Origin: a virus
Lineage: Duplodnaviria > Caudoviricetes
Reading direction: 5' to 3' (one strand)
DNA length: 64,000 nt
IMG/VR virus record: IMGVR_UViG_3300021592_000001
Coordinates: 32,001-96,000 of that record
This document shows, in pieces, positions 24,768-49,531 of this stretch. Positions within the stretch are counted from its first letter, which is position 1. Each line of letters opens with the position of its first letter. The position numbers were made by a program, and so were the translations under genes. A model generated the notes under the pieces. The model was not told the origin of the DNA, made no database searches, and worked only from the letters and a program-made list of their open reading frames with translations.

Positions 24768-25611
24768 AACACTTCCTCCCTTTTTTAAGGTTTATCCAAA
24801 AATCGGAGCCGTATTTTTTAATACCATTATCTTTCATTATTTTGAGAAATATAGTTTTATCACCTCTAATATCTTCCTGTTTGACTTTTACTTTATTCTT
24901 CAATTTTACGATTTTGTAGAAAAATTTTATCTGCTCTCTATTATTTTGTATTATTTCCCTCAGATGACTGTCTCTTTTTGATATACTAAAAAAAGATTTC
25001 AACGTTTTGGAACTATTTATTACGTCTATTATCTTTTTCCTTGGTAATCTACAATTCAGCTTTGGTATGTTGTCAGACTTATCCCCAAAGATGGCCTTAT
25101 AAAGGCAGATTTTCTTTGGATTTCTTATGCCGTATTTGCTCTCTACGTAATCACGAGAGATAACATTTCCGCTAAGATCAGCTAGGAGCACTCTCTTTCC
25201 GAATAATTGCCACAGATCATGGTCTGAACTAATTACTATTGTGCAGTCATCTATTTTCTTTACATAAGAAGCTATTACAGAATCAGCTTCTTCGTGCCTG
25301 TTATATATTATCCTACAAGGTAGGGTTCTTATTATTTTCTCTATGTCTGGGACAGGGTTGAATCTGCCTCTGATTCTGTTAGCTTTGTATCCTGGGAATA
25401 CTTTATAAACATGCTTGGGATAGCCGTCTATTGCAAATACAAATACAAGAGCATCCCCCTTCTTCCCAAATTTATTATAGAAAGAGTTCAATTTAGATAC
25501 AAATCCGTAGATATGTGAAGTTTTCTTACCTTCGAAATTGGCAAATCGGTATCCTTTTGCATAATAACAGGCGTATGCTAAATTTGATGTATCGATAATT
25601 ATTTCAGTCAT
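24757..25611 (-). CDS. 5'-3' exonuclease / FEN-like (T4 RNase H type)
   Basis: IID.SN, YKANR, EAD..IA, SSD.DL.QL and GDKSDNIP motifs. Confidence 0.9.
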   Translation of the reverse strand: MTEIIIDTSNLAYACYYAKGYRFANFEGKKTSHIYGFVSKLNSFYNKFGKKGDALVFVFAIDGYPKHVYKVFPGYKANRIRGRFNPVPDIEKIIRTLPCRIIYNRHEEADSVIASYVKKIDDCTIVISSDHDLWQLFGKRVLLADLSGNVISRDYVESKYGIRNPKKICLYKAIFGDKSDNIPKLNCRLPRKKIIDVINSSKTLKSFFSISKRDSHLREIIQNNREQIKFFYKIVKLKNKVKVKQEDIRGDKTIFLKIMKDNGIKKYGSDFWINLKKGRKCYGI

Positions 25612-26972
25612 TAGTCCGGCTCTATCGGTATTAGTTCGTAATCTTCCCGCTCGGCTACTAATTCTTCAGTCGAACGGTATCTCCTACTTTTGGCTTTTGC
25701 CCTGACATCTCGCTTACCGTCTTTAGCTGTATAATCTCTTATTATCATTTTATCGAAATCTGCTACCAAAGTGAAAGGAAACACTTTTTGGTTTCTCGCT
25801 TTCTGTTGATTTACCGTGATAATATTATTTTCCCCCATAGGATTATAGTTCCAAGACCACATATTGTCACAATTTTCTTTAATCGCTCTAGAATATCTGA
25901 TCCTTTCCTCGTCATTCACCTGAGCAAGAATAACAACTACACTATTAGTGTCTTTTGCGAACAGCTTTCCATATCTTGTTGATTCAGCTAACGACTTCCA
26001 CTGCTCGTCCCTTTCTTGTTTTAATAATGAAGCATAGTCTATAACGAAGACATCATAGTTATAAGGTTTTAGGCGGAATAGTATGTCTCTTATGTATAGG
26101 TCTTCGCTAGGAGTATATATAGTGTACTTACAGTCATTGCGCTTCCCAAACTTTTGGAAACTATTCCAAGACGTAATTATTCTTTGTTTATCGGCTTTAG
26201 TTAGTTTGTTAAGACTTATATTAAGAGAATCTACTCCAGAAATATTTGACAATATTCGTGTAAGAACCTGTTCCCTATCCATTTCCAGAGAAACGAGCAC
26301 TACGCTGAACCCTGAAAGATACATATTTATAAGAAGTTGAATAGCCATAGCACTCTTACCGCCAGAAGTATTAGCTCCTATGACTACGAGGCTGGATCTT
26401 TTAAATCCACCGTTTATAGAGTCGAACTGCTTTATTCCAGTAGGTATGCAAGGAACTACTTCCCCTTCTATAATCTTCTTTACGACATCGTCCGCATTAT
26501 CCCTGTTTCCTATATGTAAGATGTCATCTTCAGAGCTTGCGGACTTTGCCTTCATCAAAGTATCTTCCCATAACCTTATTAAGGCATCTGGGTCTACGGC
26601 TTCCTTGGAAACTATGTCAGACGATTTAATAAGACTGTGCTTGATAGTTCTAAATTTTCTATAATTTTCGAGAATGTCTATGAGAGTCTTCGCATCTTTC
26701 TCAGTAGTAATTCTATATTTCTTCTTTTTAGAAGTTCTTAGCATCACCCTTGCGGACTCAGGCAGAACAGCGTCTTCCGCAAGTGTAGATACCTTCGGTA
26801 TAAGCTTACCTTTTGAGAGAAGATTCCTAATCCTTCTAAATACCTTACGAATATCTTCGTGTCCGAAATGGTCTTCCCTTAGGAATCCAAGGAGAATAGA
26901 CTTTGCAACTTCACTACCGTCACAGATAGTGATAATAGCCTTCAATTCGCTCTTAATAGATATGCTTCTCAT
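25611..26972 (-). CDS. dnaB: DnaB-like replicative helicase
   Basis: PTG...FD...GG, GANTSGGKS, SLEM, VIDY, LAQ and QKARN motifs. Confidence 0.9.
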   Translation of the reverse strand: MRSISIKSELKAIITICDGSEVAKSILLGFLREDHFGHEDIRKVFRRIRNLLSKGKLIPKVSTLAEDAVLPESARVMLRTSKKKKYRITTEKDAKTLIDILENYRKFRTIKHSLIKSSDIVSKEAVDPDALIRLWEDTLMKAKSASSEDDILHIGNRDNADDVVKKIIEGEVVPCIPTGIKQFDSINGGFKRSSLVVIGANTSGGKSAMAIQLLINMYLSGFSVVLVSLEMDREQVLTRILSNISGVDSLNISLNKLTKADKQRIITSWNSFQKFGKRNDCKYTIYTPSEDLYIRDILFRLKPYNYDVFVIDYASLLKQERDEQWKSLAESTRYGKLFAKDTNSVVVILAQVNDEERIRYSRAIKENCDNMWSWNYNPMGENNIITVNQQKARNQKVFPFTLVADFDKMIIRDYTAKDGKRDVRAKAKSRRYRSTEELVAEREDYELIPIEPD

Positions 26973-38931: not shown

Positions 38932-39651
38932 TTACGCTATTGGACCGAGATACTGAATTATGAAATCCCTTATTACCTTATTGTAAAAATACGTCAGAAC
39001 AGGGCTCCTGAATGTCAGGCTAATAGTCCTAAGAGCGGTCAACATTGGAACAATCTCTGTCCAATGACAGAGAGCTATCGCTTCCATCATAGTCAACCTT
39101 ACAAACCTCCTCAATGTCCACCTCACCTGAATTATCTTATCACGGGAATAGATATAAACTGGCGGGTCTATATTCATGAAATCGTTGAACCACTTCACAA
39201 CATTCTTGTCTTTCACCTCATCTATGCTTTCTTTCTTTATGATGAGTTCGGGTATCCCATATTTAAGGCAGGATCTAAGCACCTCTATTTCCATCGGCCT
39301 ATTAGCTATTAAACATTGGAATAGCTCATGTATCAGATTTATAGAGAAATCATTAATGTTGCCAAGAGACTCTATGTCCACTACTAGCTTACCTTTTCTA
39401 TATCGTAATTGGCCATGTTTGACTGACGGCAATCTATTAGCTCTGAAGTTTCTAAGCCATCCTGTTCCTATATATACCTTATTTTTGGAGAGGTACTGTA
39501 GGACTACACCTGCAATAGCAGGATCATTGGTATTATCGAGTAACTCTTTGTAGACTCCCTCAAATTCCTGCTCTACCTGTTCTTTGCTTATGCCAGATAC
39601 CAGTATTTCTAATTCGAATTTAAGATCATAACTGCTGTTACTCTCTTTCAT
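38932..39651 (-). CDS. hypothetical protein
   Basis: 239-aa ORF; IHELFQ. Confidence 0.6.
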   Translation of the reverse strand: MKESNSSYDLKFELEILVSGISKEQVEQEFEGVYKELLDNTNDPAIAGVVLQYLSKNKVYIGTGWLRNFRANRLPSVKHGQLRYRKGKLVVDIESLGNINDFSINLIHELFQCLIANRPMEIEVLRSCLKYGIPELIIKKESIDEVKDKNVVKWFNDFMNIDPPVYIYSRDKIIQVRWTLRRFVRLTMMEAIALCHWTEIVPMLTALRTISLTFRSPVLTYFYNKVIRDFIIQYLGPIA

Positions 39652-39704
39652 ATTCCTTCTCCATTTTACTTATAGTGAGAGAAAAAGGAGTAGTAGCTTC
39701 GTAG

Positions 39705-39916
39705 CGTCCTCTTCGGGGACGATAGAATCACGACCTTCGGTCGTGATTCCTAAAAAGAGAGAAAAGATAAGGAAAAAAGTTAGATTACCCTCCGTTGTAT
39801 GACTTATACATACAACATACAGCAGAAGAACGTCCCTCTCTCTTTCTTTCTCTTTCTTTCTTTAATGATTGCGACCGAAGGTCGCAATCATGTGTTGCCT
39901 CCGAAGGAGGCAACAC
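39705..39916. repeat. symmetric array of four triloop hairpins around a central palindrome (candidate replication origin)
   Basis: Inverted repeats at 39705-39721, 39725-39749, 39794-39816, 39865-39891 and 39892-39916, read directly from the sequence. Confidence 0.85.
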
Positions 39917-40135
39917 TTAGTATCGCTGCCCTCCCCACTTCTCACATGAGATACCTCCTAATTGCGGGGATGGTATGAGTGCACACCTCATCCAAATAGG
40001 ATGGCGATTTTTTGCAAAATTTTGGGATTTTTGTGACCAAAATAGTTCGCCATCCATAAAAAAGTCCGAGGGTTAATTTTTCAGAAGAGAACACAGGAAA
40101 TAGCCTTAAAGGAATGATTGCAATATAGCTTCTTA

Positions 40136-41998
40136 TCAACATCTTAAGACTACAGTCTCCTTTATACGAGAGATAGGCACTTTTCCTGGTTCTCTTATTG
40201 CTTCTAGTGTTCTCTTATCTTTTATTGCTTTGTTCACAAGATCGCCACACCCTCGGAAGATGGCGATCCTGGCTTTCCTTATTTTGGATTTTAGTTTTCT
40301 GAATTCTATCTTTGTCTTTTTTGGGATTTTATACTTTGCAGTATATTCCTTCTTCTTGAGACTTATTATCTTTTCATTGCATTTCTCCTTCTCTTGAGGT
40401 TTATTGTTCATGAGGATCCTGTATTTCTTCTTTCCGTGGAGTATATAGGCTGCAACTCTCGCTTTCCCGCTTTCAATTAGGCGAACTGCACTTGTGACCA
40501 GCTTATCTACAAATTCCGATATCTTCCTACGTCTGGTTCTCTTTTTCTTGTAAGACTTTATTATTTGGCTTCTTGTGCGTCTTATTTCCTTTTTCAAGGA
40601 GAGCTCGGCGAGTCTTCTAACTCTTAGCCGTCTTTCCCTTTCTGCTGCTTCTGCTTCCTCTTTCTTGCGTCTTCTTTCGGCTTCCTCTTGAGCACGCCTG
40701 TCCAGTTTTGCTTTGTAGTAATCCATGTATTCATATACAAGATGTCTTCTGTGAGACTCTCTCCTAGATTCGGCTTCTCTGAACCTACATGCAGATATTA
40801 TATGGGCATTGACATGTGATGAGAACAGGTCTGTTATGTTTTCGTCTTTTACCTTCTCATCAGGTTTCTTGCACATTTCTGCATATAAGGAGTGAAGCTT
40901 CTCTCTCGCTTCCTTTGCCTTCTTACCTTTACCAGCTACGTCATACCATCCCCCAAAAGCATAGCAGAAATATTTCTCACAGTCGCTCAACCACCACTCT
41001 CCAGACATTCCGCTTTTATAAAAGGCTTTCGTATATTTGTCTCCGTCTATCCACGTAAGGCTATTCTTCTTTCTTGTTTTGAGATACTGATTCCTGAACG
41101 ACTTCTTATTAGGGCATTTCTTCAAGGATTTGATGTCGGTAGTGTCAACTTTAGGGTGATTAGCGAAGAAAGGATCTTTGTAGTTCTGCGATGTTTTGTT
41201 TCCAAGGATCTTGTCAATAGCATGGAGTTTCTTGCGTATTCGCTTATATATTCTTGCTATGTCCTTGCATTTGAATATCGCCGATATTGCTTTCTCACGG
41301 ATCTGATTTTTGCAGATCTTTGCATGTAGGTCTTCAATATAAAAGAAAACCTCTGCAGAAGTGGTAGGATTTGCTATGCGTATTTTAGTAGAACCTTTTA
41401 GTATGTTACCTATAAACTTTAGGAAATAAGCTACCGTTCCGAGTGGTCTAAGTTCATCTGATTCCTGCTCCCGTTTCATCGCTGCAATTATAGCACTTAC
41501 CTTGACAGGTATAAATCTCAGCCCGGGGCATAAACTCTCTATTCCTTTGGCTGCATATTTCTCCAGCAGTTTCGATACTAGTATTTCCTTTATTTCCGAT
41601 ATTAGATTATTTGCTTGATTGAAGTGAACGACTTCTCCTAAACCTCCTCCACCGCCTAAGTAGTTTGCAAACGTCTGTTTATTATAGTCGGGAGAATACT
41701 TCCAACCTCCTCTAAGCGTTCTTGTTCCTGCGAGGACAGCTGAATGCCACGATTTTATTATTCTTTCTTTTTTCCATTTTGCCCATACGTCATCACTGTC
41801 GAACTCAGGCATTATCTTGCCATAACCTTCAAATAAGGCATTGTCGAATTCGCTCCAGTCGTTCACCCTTGTATCGTTCGTAGTTGGTGAGAACAGCAGC
41901 CATGCACTTCCTACCCTTCTTTCGTTATTACTCTCCTTTAGCAGCTCTGCTTTGTCGTATAGCTCTGTAGATTTCCCTCTTATAGGGTTATAGTTCAT
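40136..41998 (-). CDS. large basic hypothetical protein (candidate origin-binding/initiator)
   Basis: 620-aa K/R-rich ORF ending about 220 bp from the hairpin array; no recognised family motif. Confidence 0.6.
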   Translation of the reverse strand: MNYNPIRGKSTELYDKAELLKESNNERRVGSAWLLFSPTTNDTRVNDWSEFDNALFEGYGKIMPEFDSDDVWAKWKKERIIKSWHSAVLAGTRTLRGGWKYSPDYNKQTFANYLGGGGGLGEVVHFNQANNLISEIKEILVSKLLEKYAAKGIESLCPGLRFIPVKVSAIIAAMKREQESDELRPLGTVAYFLKFIGNILKGSTKIRIANPTTSAEVFFYIEDLHAKICKNQIREKAISAIFKCKDIARIYKRIRKKLHAIDKILGNKTSQNYKDPFFANHPKVDTTDIKSLKKCPNKKSFRNQYLKTRKKNSLTWIDGDKYTKAFYKSGMSGEWWLSDCEKYFCYAFGGWYDVAGKGKKAKEAREKLHSLYAEMCKKPDEKVKDENITDLFSSHVNAHIISACRFREAESRRESHRRHLVYEYMDYYKAKLDRRAQEEAERRRKKEEAEAAERERRLRVRRLAELSLKKEIRRTRSQIIKSYKKKRTRRRKISEFVDKLVTSAVRLIESGKARVAAYILHGKKKYRILMNNKPQEKEKCNEKIISLKKKEYTAKYKIPKKTKIEFRKLKSKIRKARIAIFRGCGDLVNKAIKDKRTLEAIREPGKVPISRIKETVVLRC

Positions 41999-44862: not shown

Positions 44863-45504
44863 CTACCTCAATATATTGAGAAGTTGTTTTTCGACGAGAT
44901 TTCTCCTGTTCATTCTAGCTAAGACATGGCTCACGTACATGTCTGCATGGTGAAGGAGGAGCGTTAGTGGAAGCTCTTTATTCTTGATGTCTTTCCCCGA
45001 ATTCATATACATCCCTCCATGATATAATATCGCCTGATATTCATCTTCTGATAATTTTATGTCGAATTCGTTTAAGATCCAGACTGACCTAACTTCGTGA
45101 GGTATCTGCGTGATCTTTTCATTTACCGTATATGGCGGTCCTTCGCCTTCAAGAGGAATGTATAAATGTTCTGTCTTCGTCCCTATTTTTCCGAGATCGT
45201 GAAATAGCCCAGTCGTAACTACTTTGTCGATTGTTACATCGTTTGGATATAGGTGCATGTCGTGCATCATTTTAAGTGTAACAAATACGGAGTGGTTTAT
45301 AAGCCCTCCATTGTACGAGTCATGGTGTTTTGCGGAAGCAGGTGACTGTCGGAATCTTTTTATGATACCTTCATCATACATCATAAATAGCAGCTTTTTC
45401 TTTCTGTTTTTATCACGAATCATCTCCAGCAATTTCCCAAAAGTCTTTTCTCTTATTTTCATCTTAAGTTTCCTTAATGCATTCGGTTCTGTACTTGCAG
45501 TCAA
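44863..45504 (-). CDS. HD-domain phosphohydrolase (YhaM-like)
   Basis: SPAS.KHH....GGL..HS, HDLGK and H.AD motifs. Confidence 0.85.
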   Translation of the reverse strand: MTASTEPNALRKLKMKIREKTFGKLLEMIRDKNRKKKLLFMMYDEGIIKRFRQSPASAKHHDSYNGGLINHSVFVTLKMMHDMHLYPNDVTIDKVVTTGLFHDLGKIGTKTEHLYIPLEGEGPPYTVNEKITQIPHEVRSVWILNEFDIKLSEDEYQAILYHGGMYMNSGKDIKNKELPLTLLLHHADMYVSHVLARMNRRNLVEKQLLNILR

Positions 45505-46483
45505 AGCATTTTATTTTACCTTTGTAATCGCCAAAGCACTTTGGCTTTTTGCTCTTTTTCGCTTTGGCTTTCTTTTTCTTCTTATTTTTCTTTTTATCCT
45601 TTTTGCTTTTCATTTTCTTTGCTTTCTTTTTTCTTTTCTTCGACGTTCTTTCTTCTTCTTCCTCTTCGATTTCCTCATCTTCTTCGATATTTATTACTCT
45701 GCCAGACCTAGTCTCAGATGACTTCTTCCTCTTTTCCTTTCCCTTCTTTCTAGCAGCCTTCGCTTGTTCTTCGTCTAACAACAGCGCTTCAGACGGCCTG
45801 AGATATCCTAGTCTTATCAGGTCTGCTTCCTGTTTAGCCATGTCTACAGACACTGCATTCTCCACGTCGAATAGCTGATAATTACGCTCTTCTTTTGTCA
45901 GAGGGGTGTGATCGCCTTTCTGGACATCGTAAGCTGTGGAAGGCGATTCATTGGAATCGTATTTTATAAATACGTCACAACCGTAGTCTGGATCTGACAG
46001 CTCACAGGTTACCGTTTTTCCACGTATCTTGTGCTTATTCAATGCCACTATGTTCTTTAGCTGACTGGCGCAAGAAACTGGTATTTTGAATACCTTTATC
46101 GGAGACCATGATTCGTCTCCAACTTTTCTGAATTTTCCTTTCTTGGCCTTTTTGATTTTGGCTTTCAGAGGTTTGTTTTCTTGCAATTCCCTGTCGATAA
46201 AATTGGCGAAGTAGAATTTATTTGTTTCTATGCCTGCTCTGCAGGCAGGGCACTTGTTATCTATAAACTGTTCCGTCTTTGGATCATAGCTCCCACAAGT
46301 CATCGGAAACTTGGTTTTACTTCCGTCGCTTTTGATAACTGTAACCCAATGCCTTACAGCACTGGATACAGGACCGACAGGTCTCAATTGTTTATACTTG
46401 CCATCTTTCAGTTCTCCCCAGTCAAGATTTTCTTCCCACTTTTTATCTTGCGCTGCGGATGGTTTGATGTCTCCCCATTTCAT
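45464..46483 (-). CDS. single-stranded DNA-binding protein (gp32-like) with Lys-rich tail and terminal Cys4 motif
   Basis: R..GP....RHW, C...CP.C, Y.AN.IDR and L.DP..G.D..I..D.....Y.V motifs; located between the sigma factor and recA. Confidence 0.6.
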   Translation of the reverse strand: MKWGDIKPSAAQDKKWEENLDWGELKDGKYKQLRPVGPVSSAVRHWVTVIKSDGSKTKFPMTCGSYDPKTEQFIDNKCPACRAGIETNKFYFANFIDRELQENKPLKAKIKKAKKGKFRKVGDESWSPIKVFKIPVSCASQLKNIVALNKHKIRGKTVTCELSDPDYGCDVFIKYDSNESPSTAYDVQKGDHTPLTKEERNYQLFDVENAVSVDMAKQEADLIRLGYLRPSEALLLDEEQAKAARKKGKEKRKKSSETRSGRVINIEEDEEIEEEEEERTSKKRKKKAKKMKSKKDKKKNKKKKKAKAKKSKKPKCFGDYKGKIKCFDCKYRTECIKET

Positions 46484-47804: not shown

Positions 47805-48638
47805 TTATACCTCCATATTCCTGATATGTTCCATATTGCGCAAGTGCTTTTCCACCCCGATAGGGGAAAAGCAGATGTTCTGATAAGGACAGTGCCTGTT
47901 CACAGCATCACTCTTCGTTTTGCAGACTTTCTTGATTTTGGTGAACTCTTTACGTTCAATTAGTTTCATCGTTTTATAGTAACTTTCTATCATCTTGTCC
48001 GAATGATCGTAGTCGACTCCTGGATTTACAAAAATTTTATAATTATTGTGTTTAGCTCTATCGAAGTAGATAATTATATGTCCTTCTATATCACTTTCCA
48101 ACTTAAGGCATCTATTGACCATTGCTGCATATAAGTTGGCCTGACAGATGTGCTCTCTCTTGGGAGATTTCATCTTTTTAATTTTTTCTGCGTTACTGGT
48201 TTTTATTTCGAGTAGAAATATTTTGTCTGCTAATTTTATTATTCCATCACAGTGTCCTGTCAGACCTTTGTAAAAAAGAGAATACTCTACATATTTAGCC
48301 ATCGTCCTACAACAGATGATTGGACCCCAGGTTTCAACAATTTTTCCGCAGTTCTTGCATTTCCACTTACCATATAAAGGAAACCATCTCTGAACTACTT
48401 CATGAATAGCTGTCCCTATTCCCGTGTAGTAATCTTCTGCGAAGGAGTTTCCAGAAGGTCTTCCGTAGATTAAGCTTAATGCTAAATGTGTGGGGCAGAA
48501 TAAGGATAGAGCGGAAGTTCTCAGTTCATAATCAGTACAGTCAATATCTGTAATTACTCTTGATTCGGTCGCTTCCCTTACTACTCGGTGAATCTCTGCC
48601 TCTATTCTTGAGAAATCTATCTTTGTCATGGTTTGCAC
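47805..48638 (-). CDS. Cas4-like PD-(D/E)XK exonuclease
   Basis: FCP, GTAIHE, GHCDG, EIKT, Q..LY and C-terminal C...CPY...C motifs. Confidence 0.8.
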   Translation of the reverse strand: MQTMTKIDFSRIEAEIHRVVREATESRVITDIDCTDYELRTSALSLFCPTHLALSLIYGRPSGNSFAEDYYTGIGTAIHEVVQRWFPLYGKWKCKNCGKIVETWGPIICCRTMAKYVEYSLFYKGLTGHCDGIIKLADKIFLLEIKTSNAEKIKKMKSPKREHICQANLYAAMVNRCLKLESDIEGHIIIYFDRAKHNNYKIFVNPGVDYDHSDKMIESYYKTMKLIERKEFTKIKKVCKTKSDAVNRHCPYQNICFSPIGVEKHLRNMEHIRNMEV

Positions 48639-49531
48639 ATATTCTTTATAACTCTAAGAATCTTTGGGGGAGCAGTTTCAGGATCCATTTTACCTTTTGG
48701 GAGTCTCGGTAGATCTAAAATTCTTGTATCAAATTCGTCCCTCAGTTCTTTCCATATACGTCTATTACATTCATATCCCGCAAGGTCGCCGTCACATACA
48801 ATACACACTATTTCTATTCCCTTCGCTGCTAATAGGTTGCTTTTGTATTTATCCCAATTATTCACGCCGAAGAAGCTCATGGCTGGGATGTTGTGCTTTA
48901 TTAAATTTAAGGCATCGCTTATACCTTCTACCAAGACTACAGACTTGTCATTGTGCAAGTCGTAGGGAAACATTGCCTTCTTTACCCATTTACCTTTGCT
49001 GAATCTATGGTATCCATCTCCATTTCCCTCTATCACATATCCCACTGTCTCCCCAAACATTTTAATTGGAAATAATATTCTTTCCATTCCAGACTTTTCA
49101 TCGTAATAGCTCATAGCTCCGAACTGTCGTAGAAATTCCTTAGGGTAAATTATTCTCTTCCTTTTCCAACTTTTATTCCATCCAGAAAGACTAGCTATGT
49201 TTGTAATTTCTGGCGGATTACCTTCACTTTCTGCAATCTTGTCTCTGATGAGTTTCCCAAGACTTTCCGAGTCTATGCTTTCAGTTTCGGAGAGTTCTTT
49301 AAGACCTATCTTTTTAGCCAGGATATTCCAGTTTCCAGATTTACCGCAACCAAAACAATGAAATGTCCCGACTGGGACCTTTGGATTATCTATGTTTACA
49401 GAACAAGACGGATGTCTTTCTTTGTGCCATGGGCATCTTATTAGTATGTTTTTGTCTCCCACCTTCTTTGGTGGAGGAATCTTTTCTAATTCCTCCACTA
49501 CAATGTTTCTTTTCTCCTCTCTGGTGATCAT
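48626..49531 (-). CDS. dnaG: DNA primase (CHC2 Zn finger + Toprim)
   Basis: CPWHKE..PS, FHCFGCG..G, VEG..DAL and DGD.AG motifs. Confidence 0.9.
   Translation of the reverse strand: MITREEKRNIVVEELEKIPPPKKVGDKNILIRCPWHKERHPSCSVNIDNPKVPVGTFHCFGCGKSGNWNILAKKIGLKELSETESIDSESLGKLIRDKIAESEGNPPEITNIASLSGWNKSWKRKRIIYPKEFLRQFGAMSYYDEKSGMERILFPIKMFGETVGYVIEGNGDGYHRFSKGKWVKKAMFPYDLHNDKSVVLVEGISDALNLIKHNIPAMSFFGVNNWDKYKSNLLAAKGIEIVCIVCDGDLAGYECNRRIWKELRDEFDTRILDLPRLPKGKMDPETAPPKILRVIKNMCKP

Follow-up and report, generated by a model that had tools for sequence, protein, structure and literature searches.

A probable replication origin of new layout, marked by GAA mini-hairpins, in a hydrothermal-vent phage

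Priming signals built on DNA mini-hairpins have been described in a plasmid and in small single-stranded DNA phages. At oriV of the IncQ plasmid RSF1010, the signals ssiA and ssiB lie inverted on opposite strands (PMC8567376, PMC13037366) and are read by the AEP-type primase RepB'; the mini-hairpin of ssiA is CCGAAGG (PMC13037366). The complementary-strand origins of phages G4, St-1 and alpha3 instead carry several hairpins with a mini-hairpin core, which are thought to remain free of SSB and to be used by DnaG (PMC13037366). These phages have single-stranded genomes and a single priming direction. In phage lambda, the origin lies within the gene of the phage initiator O, and replication passes from a mixture of one-way and two-way theta starts to rolling circle (PMC3985674). 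Hairpins with GNA triloops also occur outside replication, as in the promoters of the N4 virion RNA polymerase, where the triloop on the template strand is GGA or GAA (PMC13037366). Additionally, template switching in yeast genes is known to homogenise hairpin arms and to invert their spacers, GAA/TTC flips included (PMC8604942), as a mutational process without function.

The locus considered here belongs to an uncultured hydrothermal-vent phage, represented by a linear contig of 188,322 bp that is approximately 73% complete and is matched over its full length by one hydrothermal-vent metagenome run. The window, a stretch of 64,000 nucleotides, comprises positions 32001-96000 of this contig. 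The phage encodes a terminase and a portal, as expected of a tailed phage, and has its own primase. Its replication genes specify DnaB (25611-26972), a DnaG-type primase (48626-49531), SSB (45464-46483), a clamp loader and PolA, and are accompanied by RecA, SbcCD, a Holliday junction resolvase and a sigma factor. The RecA and clamp loader are nearest, at 30-41% identity, to those of Vibrio GR7B/GR11A, Lu11, PaBG, phiRSL1 and Y3-like phages; no mapped origin or initiator was found for large phages of the Lu11/PaBG/phiRSL1 type in literature of incomplete coverage. Outside the window, the contig also encodes a PolX-PHP polymerase (genome 14654-16300) and a PolA with a fused uracil-DNA glycosylase domain (genome 177912-180608). 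Among related contigs, RecA homologues with LAGLIDADG inteins occur at L007:6001-8586 and L008:2333-4960.

Within a 33-kb block of minus-strand genes, a gap of 484 nt (39652-40135) separates ORF239 (38932-39651, minus strand), a flanking gene of no known family, from ORF620 (40136-41998, minus strand), which encodes an orphan protein with a basic C-terminal coil and is a candidate initiator. A 66-codon ORF at 39942-40142 is without support. All parts of the gap listed in the original prediction were recovered in place, with one correction: hairpin A, first given as 39705-39721, in fact spans 39702-39724, with a 10-bp stem that has two defects (G.A and T.G) and presents C-GAA-G on the minus strand. 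It directly precedes hairpin B (39725-39749), a perfect 11-bp stem whose plus-strand TTC loop again reads as C-GAA-G on the minus strand. A purine tract follows (39752-39779), interrupted by one T; on the minus strand it is a pyrimidine tract and mirrors the pure 31-nt pyrimidine tract of the plus strand (39833-39863), the longest pure purine or pyrimidine run of the entire 188-kb contig. Between the two tracts lies a central palindrome (39794-39816) with 8-bp arms and a 7-nt spacer. The right half ends in hairpins C (39865-39891) and D (39892-39916), both on the plus strand with CC-GAA-GG cores and GAA loops, and with perfect stems of 12 and 11 bp, respectively, as for B in agreement with the first description. 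A with B and C with D thus form back-to-back pairs, the C-D pair having TTA on both sides, and the left and right halves show 77% complementarity over 30 nt. Towards ORF620, a stretch rich in A/T runs (40005-40135, 63-68% AT) may be a region of unwinding or bending.

None of 5000 dinucleotide shuffles of the gap contained at least three triloop hairpins with stems of at least 8 bp, and only one contained two. Mirror alignment of the two halves scored 80, the best of 2000 shuffles reaching 59, and folding gave z = -8.9 for the gap as DNA and z = -8.3 for its sense RNA. Of the C-GAA-G hairpins in the contig, B, C and D alone exceed 6 bp, and no other C-GNA-G triloop hairpin with a perfect stem of at least 8 bp occurs in 11 related genomes and contigs (about 2 Mb). 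No further copies of the element occur in the contig, its two larger gaps included; the exact pattern of hairpin B had no match in viral contigs, and an Rfam search of the element returned no family at its cut-off. Every stem is centred on its triloop, and the RNA tetraloop register C-UUCG-G with a stem of at least 5 bp is absent from the entire contig, which together point to DNA mini-hairpins (PMC13037366). REP elements were rejected, as GTAG precedes hairpin A only and there is a single locus.

The likeness to ssiA and ssiB of RSF1010 lies in the CCGAAGG mini-hairpin and in the inversion of the signals on opposite strands (B against C and D), an arrangement seen in the genome of the window only. 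In contrast to RSF1010, the phage has DnaG, and RepB' (PF16793) had no match in the contig, a search in which the positive control was silent and the contig 73% complete. Furthermore, the phage has two hairpins per side, long tracts and no iterons, the gap holding only weak two-copy repeats, and its signal sequences are not conserved between relatives. Several hairpins with a mini-hairpin core, in a phage with DnaG, also recall the origins of G4, St-1 and alpha3, although a large double-stranded DNA phage must first melt its duplex; a 188-kb tailed phage with its own primase falls outside the G4-type oric group, in which host DnaG primes the single-stranded genome once. By analogy, the element would work like ssiA/ssiB or like a G4 origin while being a member of neither. 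As in lambda, the candidate origin adjoins the gene of the candidate initiator, but ORF620 is without similarity to a known family and hairpins stand in place of iterons. An iteron-type theta origin, such as those of lambda and P1, was accordingly rejected, there being no direct-repeat array.

Among 1.84 billion representatives, ORF620 has a single homologue, 42% identical, on contig L005. The flanking proteins of this contig are about 42% identical to those of the window, its gene order is the same, and a gap of 458 nt lies at the matching place, with no overall alignable sequence between the two gaps. In the orientation of the window, the L005 gap runs from a 19-nt pyrimidine tract, at the place of 39833-39863, to an 8-bp hairpin of unrelated sequence with a CC-TTT-GG core, at the place of hairpin C, and then to a perfect 7-bp TCC-GAA-GGA hairpin, at the place of hairpin D and on the same strand. 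The last of these is the one C-GAA-G hairpin in 21 kb of L005. The gap contains no separate left half, no counterpart of the purine tract and no palindromic centre. Thus, of the architecture sought in relatives, the tract and two hairpins recur in L005, while the mirror half and the central palindrome do not. Because the loop of the first L005 hairpin faces as in B, a compact mirror pair is an alternative reading of this gap. The best sequence match between the two gaps is an imperfect short palindrome around CAAATAGG (39982-40010), a candidate protein site whose significance is borderline, near the 95th percentile of the shuffles.

In the sister clade (L006, L019/G001), sbcD, ORF239 and the clamp loader are retained, and the slot between sbcD and ORF239 is filled by a small gene and a PfkB kinase, without ORF620, the gap or the hairpins. 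As these relatives retain ORF239 without the element, the element travels with ORF620 and not with ORF239, on the basis of two lineages with it and one clade without. In the window itself, a PfkB-like kinase gene at 5178-6086 matches the one that L019 has in place of ORF620, which indicates that slot content has moved between lineages. ORF239 carries a degenerate HExxH-like motif (HELF/HEMI) and has a weak likeness to the zincin fold (TM about 0.5, from a poor model), possibly as an inactive metalloprotease fold.

The sole JGI match of ORF620 is L018, a contig of the L005 phage itself (99.98%) that stops short of the gap. The protein was not found in viral contigs, GTDB genomes or ten related records, and searches of the named phages with the DNA and with ORF620 gave no match. 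Pfam, PHROGs, the PDB and the Atlas yielded nothing usable on its function, two predicted folds had mean pLDDT values of 40 and 34, and inspection, by eye only, revealed no protelomerase, HUH or RuvC motif. Its position, its co-occurrence with the element and its basic charge nevertheless make ORF620 a plausible initiator, if a tentative one.

Leading strands are T-over-A rich. They are also rich in G over C, which is commonly ascribed to deamination (PMC3269016). Plain GC skew across the contig tracks gene strand and shows nothing at the element; it is the synonymous sites alone that show a step. At fourfold sites of same-strand genes, the A/T skew changes from -0.04 left of the gap to +0.16 on its right. 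With gene strand as a covariate, the best A/T change point of the contig at these sites is the element (0 of 300 permutations as strong), with a genome-wide bootstrap that is broad, placing 57% within 3 kb (37-43 kb) and leaving wide tails. When synonymous sites are scored as G+T versus A+C, the gap again comes out first of the contig's 163 gene boundaries as a single change point. Taken on its own, GC skew does not reach significance, and for two of the site classes the genome-wide peak lies at another place. In the operon of co-oriented genes, every one of the 12 genes whose transcription leads up to the gap is A/C-rich and the four that come next are G/T-rich; by permutation the gap ranks first of 30 (0 of 2000 permutations), a step that persists when ORF620 is left out.

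The same step is found in L005, at the matching gap (+0.23 to -0.08, p=5e-10, best of 18), which ranks first of 18 in the operon permutation (p=0.0015) with a similar gene-by-gene pattern. G001, which is without the element, has no step (p=0.37) and a rank of 16 of 32 (p=0.94). Twofold T/C sites, an independent class, give p=6e-4 and 4e-8 in the two element-bearing phages and no step in G001, and all six base contrasts shift the same way in both element-bearing phages. Gene order is identical in the window, L005 and G001, and thus no inversion lies behind the step. Its polarity is that of an origin and not of a terminus, and the latter reading was rejected. The original suggestion of an origin is borne out to this extent, the step falling exactly at the gap in two lineages and being absent from the clade without the element, and it is likely that the gap is the main replication origin of the phage. 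Two of 33 control loci, without such hairpins, also had a step at p<1e-4, so steps have other causes as well. Long-stemmed hairpins like these are absent from four named distant phages and five further IMG/VR records, in which the bias steps do not lie on hairpin clusters where looked at. Depth is flat in the contigs covered, which come from DNA runs.

The bias is lopsided. Net values are about +0.09 from the element to the right contig end and about +0.01 in the left arm, and leftwards of the gap the G/T excess is confined to the first 4-5 kb and then fades. This is unlike a plain two-way origin, and would be produced if rightward forks dominate, with some leftward ones; as a model only, lambda-like mixed starts followed by rolling circle would also give a lopsided bias. 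For the symmetric, bidirectional loading first envisaged for the element, support is partial, given the lopsided bias, the missing left half of L005 and a flipped loop in a strain variant of hairpin A; the symmetry does not extend to the relative.

This variant comes from run X2 of another study, in which a 264-nt contig of depth about 2 differs from the window at 39704, 39710 and 39712-14. With these five changes, the stem of hairpin A becomes perfect over 10 bp and its plus-strand loop becomes GAA; the 13 nt concerned (left arm and loop) are the exact reverse complement of the right arm and loop, such that one inter-strand template switch suffices for all five. The first loop base of hairpin B is also changed, to G, and this loop has probably been flipped too, its other two bases being deduced from the change types T>A and C>A. 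With loop A and probably loop B flipped, the mirror polarity is probably not fixed, on the evidence of one low-depth contig of a near-identical strain. In the X4 strain contig, hairpins C and D are unflipped. Each variant has one further change at low depth: a 3-nt insertion at 39661, just upstream of the ORF239 start, in X2, and a 1-nt deletion at 39804, in the spacer of the central palindrome, in X4. The arm homogenisation and the spacer inversion from GAA to TTC in X2 are as in the known template-switch hotspots, but here they affect two neighbouring hairpins at a probable origin. Since stems can be perfected by template switching in the absence of selection (PMC8604942), stems that are perfect yet differ in sequence do not in themselves prove selection, a warning that weakens the earlier view of these hairpins as conserved in structure rather than in sequence.

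Alternatively, the gap could be a transcription boundary (a promoter, a processing site or a small RNA), with the codon-bias step reflecting the level of transcription. In favour of this, the G/T excess is strongest over the 4-5 kb next downstream and then declines, as a promoter in the gap could produce; the steps of L084 and L094 coincide with apparent changes of gene class; the sense RNA has a stable fold; and five T follow one L005 hairpin on the sense strand. However, the anomalous genes are the upstream ones, in which fourfold sites carry more A than T (T share 0.39-0.42, the orthologous blocks of G001 having 0.54), and weaker transcription would not yield an excess of A. The triloop-centred stems and the missing tetraloop register likewise argue against a structured RNA, and there is no leftward sigma-70-like promoter, Rfam match or terminator call, the last in line with the initial remark that the hairpins, having no U-tract, do not resemble ordinary terminators: terminator prediction calls none of the four. 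A transcription boundary is considered unlikely, and a T4-style R-loop origin would be a hybrid of it and of the origin reading. The N4-type promoter pair of the original prediction, in which convergent hairpin promoters would be read by a virion RNA polymerase, shares the GNA triloop hairpin with its model. There is one site, its stems, at 11-12 bp, have roughly double the length of those of N4, loop polarity is probably not fixed, and the phage encodes a sigma factor. Searches gave no match to a multisubunit polymerase (positive control detected) or to a T7-like polymerase (positive control also silent), and the approximately 73% complete contig has no ORF near 3500 aa, the large ORFs scanned matching otherwise or nothing. 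This proposal is highly improbable and was set aside.

It could also be argued that the hairpins are functionless or selfish, either double-hairpin elements or self-perfecting palindromes in a tolerant gap, and that any origin here is independent of them. The back-to-back pairs, the TTA flanks of C-D and the template switching caught in X2, with like flips in yeast genes (PMC8604942), would all be in keeping with this, yet TTA, at 3 bp, counts for little as a match in AT-rich DNA, and L005, of unrelated sequence, retains the tract and hairpin pair at the same place and on the same strand. Moreover, the element occupies a single site; neither dispersed copies in the contig nor an empty site lacking C-D, in X4, which spans the pair, or in the few strain contigs, was seen, and a mobile double-hairpin element was rejected on these grounds. 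Functionless or selfish hairpins are thus quite improbable. The element is real and probably functional, and is probably an origin of new layout.

As an origin, the locus might operate as follows. ORF620 and the gap would constitute one cassette, set between sbcD and ORF239, in which an initiator (perhaps ORF620) would open the duplex of the gap. The freed strands would snap into mini-hairpins that resist re-annealing and coating by SSB; related mini-hairpins are known to bind SSB poorly (PMC13037366). The freed plus strand, as the lagging-strand template for rightward forks, would fold hairpins C and D. Phage DnaB could then load beside these hairpins and move 5' to 3', rightwards, and DnaG could load there as well and prime at the pyrimidine tract, used either as a landing site or as a template. 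The half that L005 conserves, a tract with plus-strand GAA hairpins, is on the strand that would be single-stranded for rightward forks, the dominant ones. The left half probably arose long ago as an inverted copy in this lineage alone and may serve leftward forks, and the stems would be kept perfect at least in part by template switching.

A broader and rather doubtful proposal is that a new-family initiator, ORF620, and the gap form an exchangeable origin cassette. Its signal would be the shape of the DNA, a pyrimidine tract with paired GAA mini-hairpins, with stem sequence free and stems kept perfect or re-oriented by template switching, such that fork direction might be adjusted by duplication, or by flips of the loops. 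Read simply as an origin, the locus would extend the mini-hairpin priming signal of a plasmid and small single-stranded DNA phages to a large double-stranded DNA phage with a DnaB/DnaG replisome. The locus offers a precise origin candidate of less than 500 bp together with one candidate protein, and the sister clade, with the same genes but neither cassette nor step, is a natural negative control that renders the reading directly testable.

Structured stretches also occur in other contigs. At L101:16340-16600 (IMGVR_UViG_3300043449_002710, approximately 217.1-217.35 kb), five GCGAAGC mini-hairpin words lie on one strand within 200 nt, of a total of 24 such words in 223 kb; this largely gene-free stretch of a distant relative is only 6 kb from the contig end and has no tie to a bias step. 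A 500-nt gap at L008:15766-16266, after a 773-aa orphan gene, holds a perfect 17-bp inverted repeat and long A runs, likewise without a bias step. Finally, L084:15400-15900 and L086:15000-15480 have in common a structured gap with a terminator and tRNA-like end motifs in apparently permuted order, on which ARAGORN makes no call and which is possibly a tmRNA-like or other RNA.
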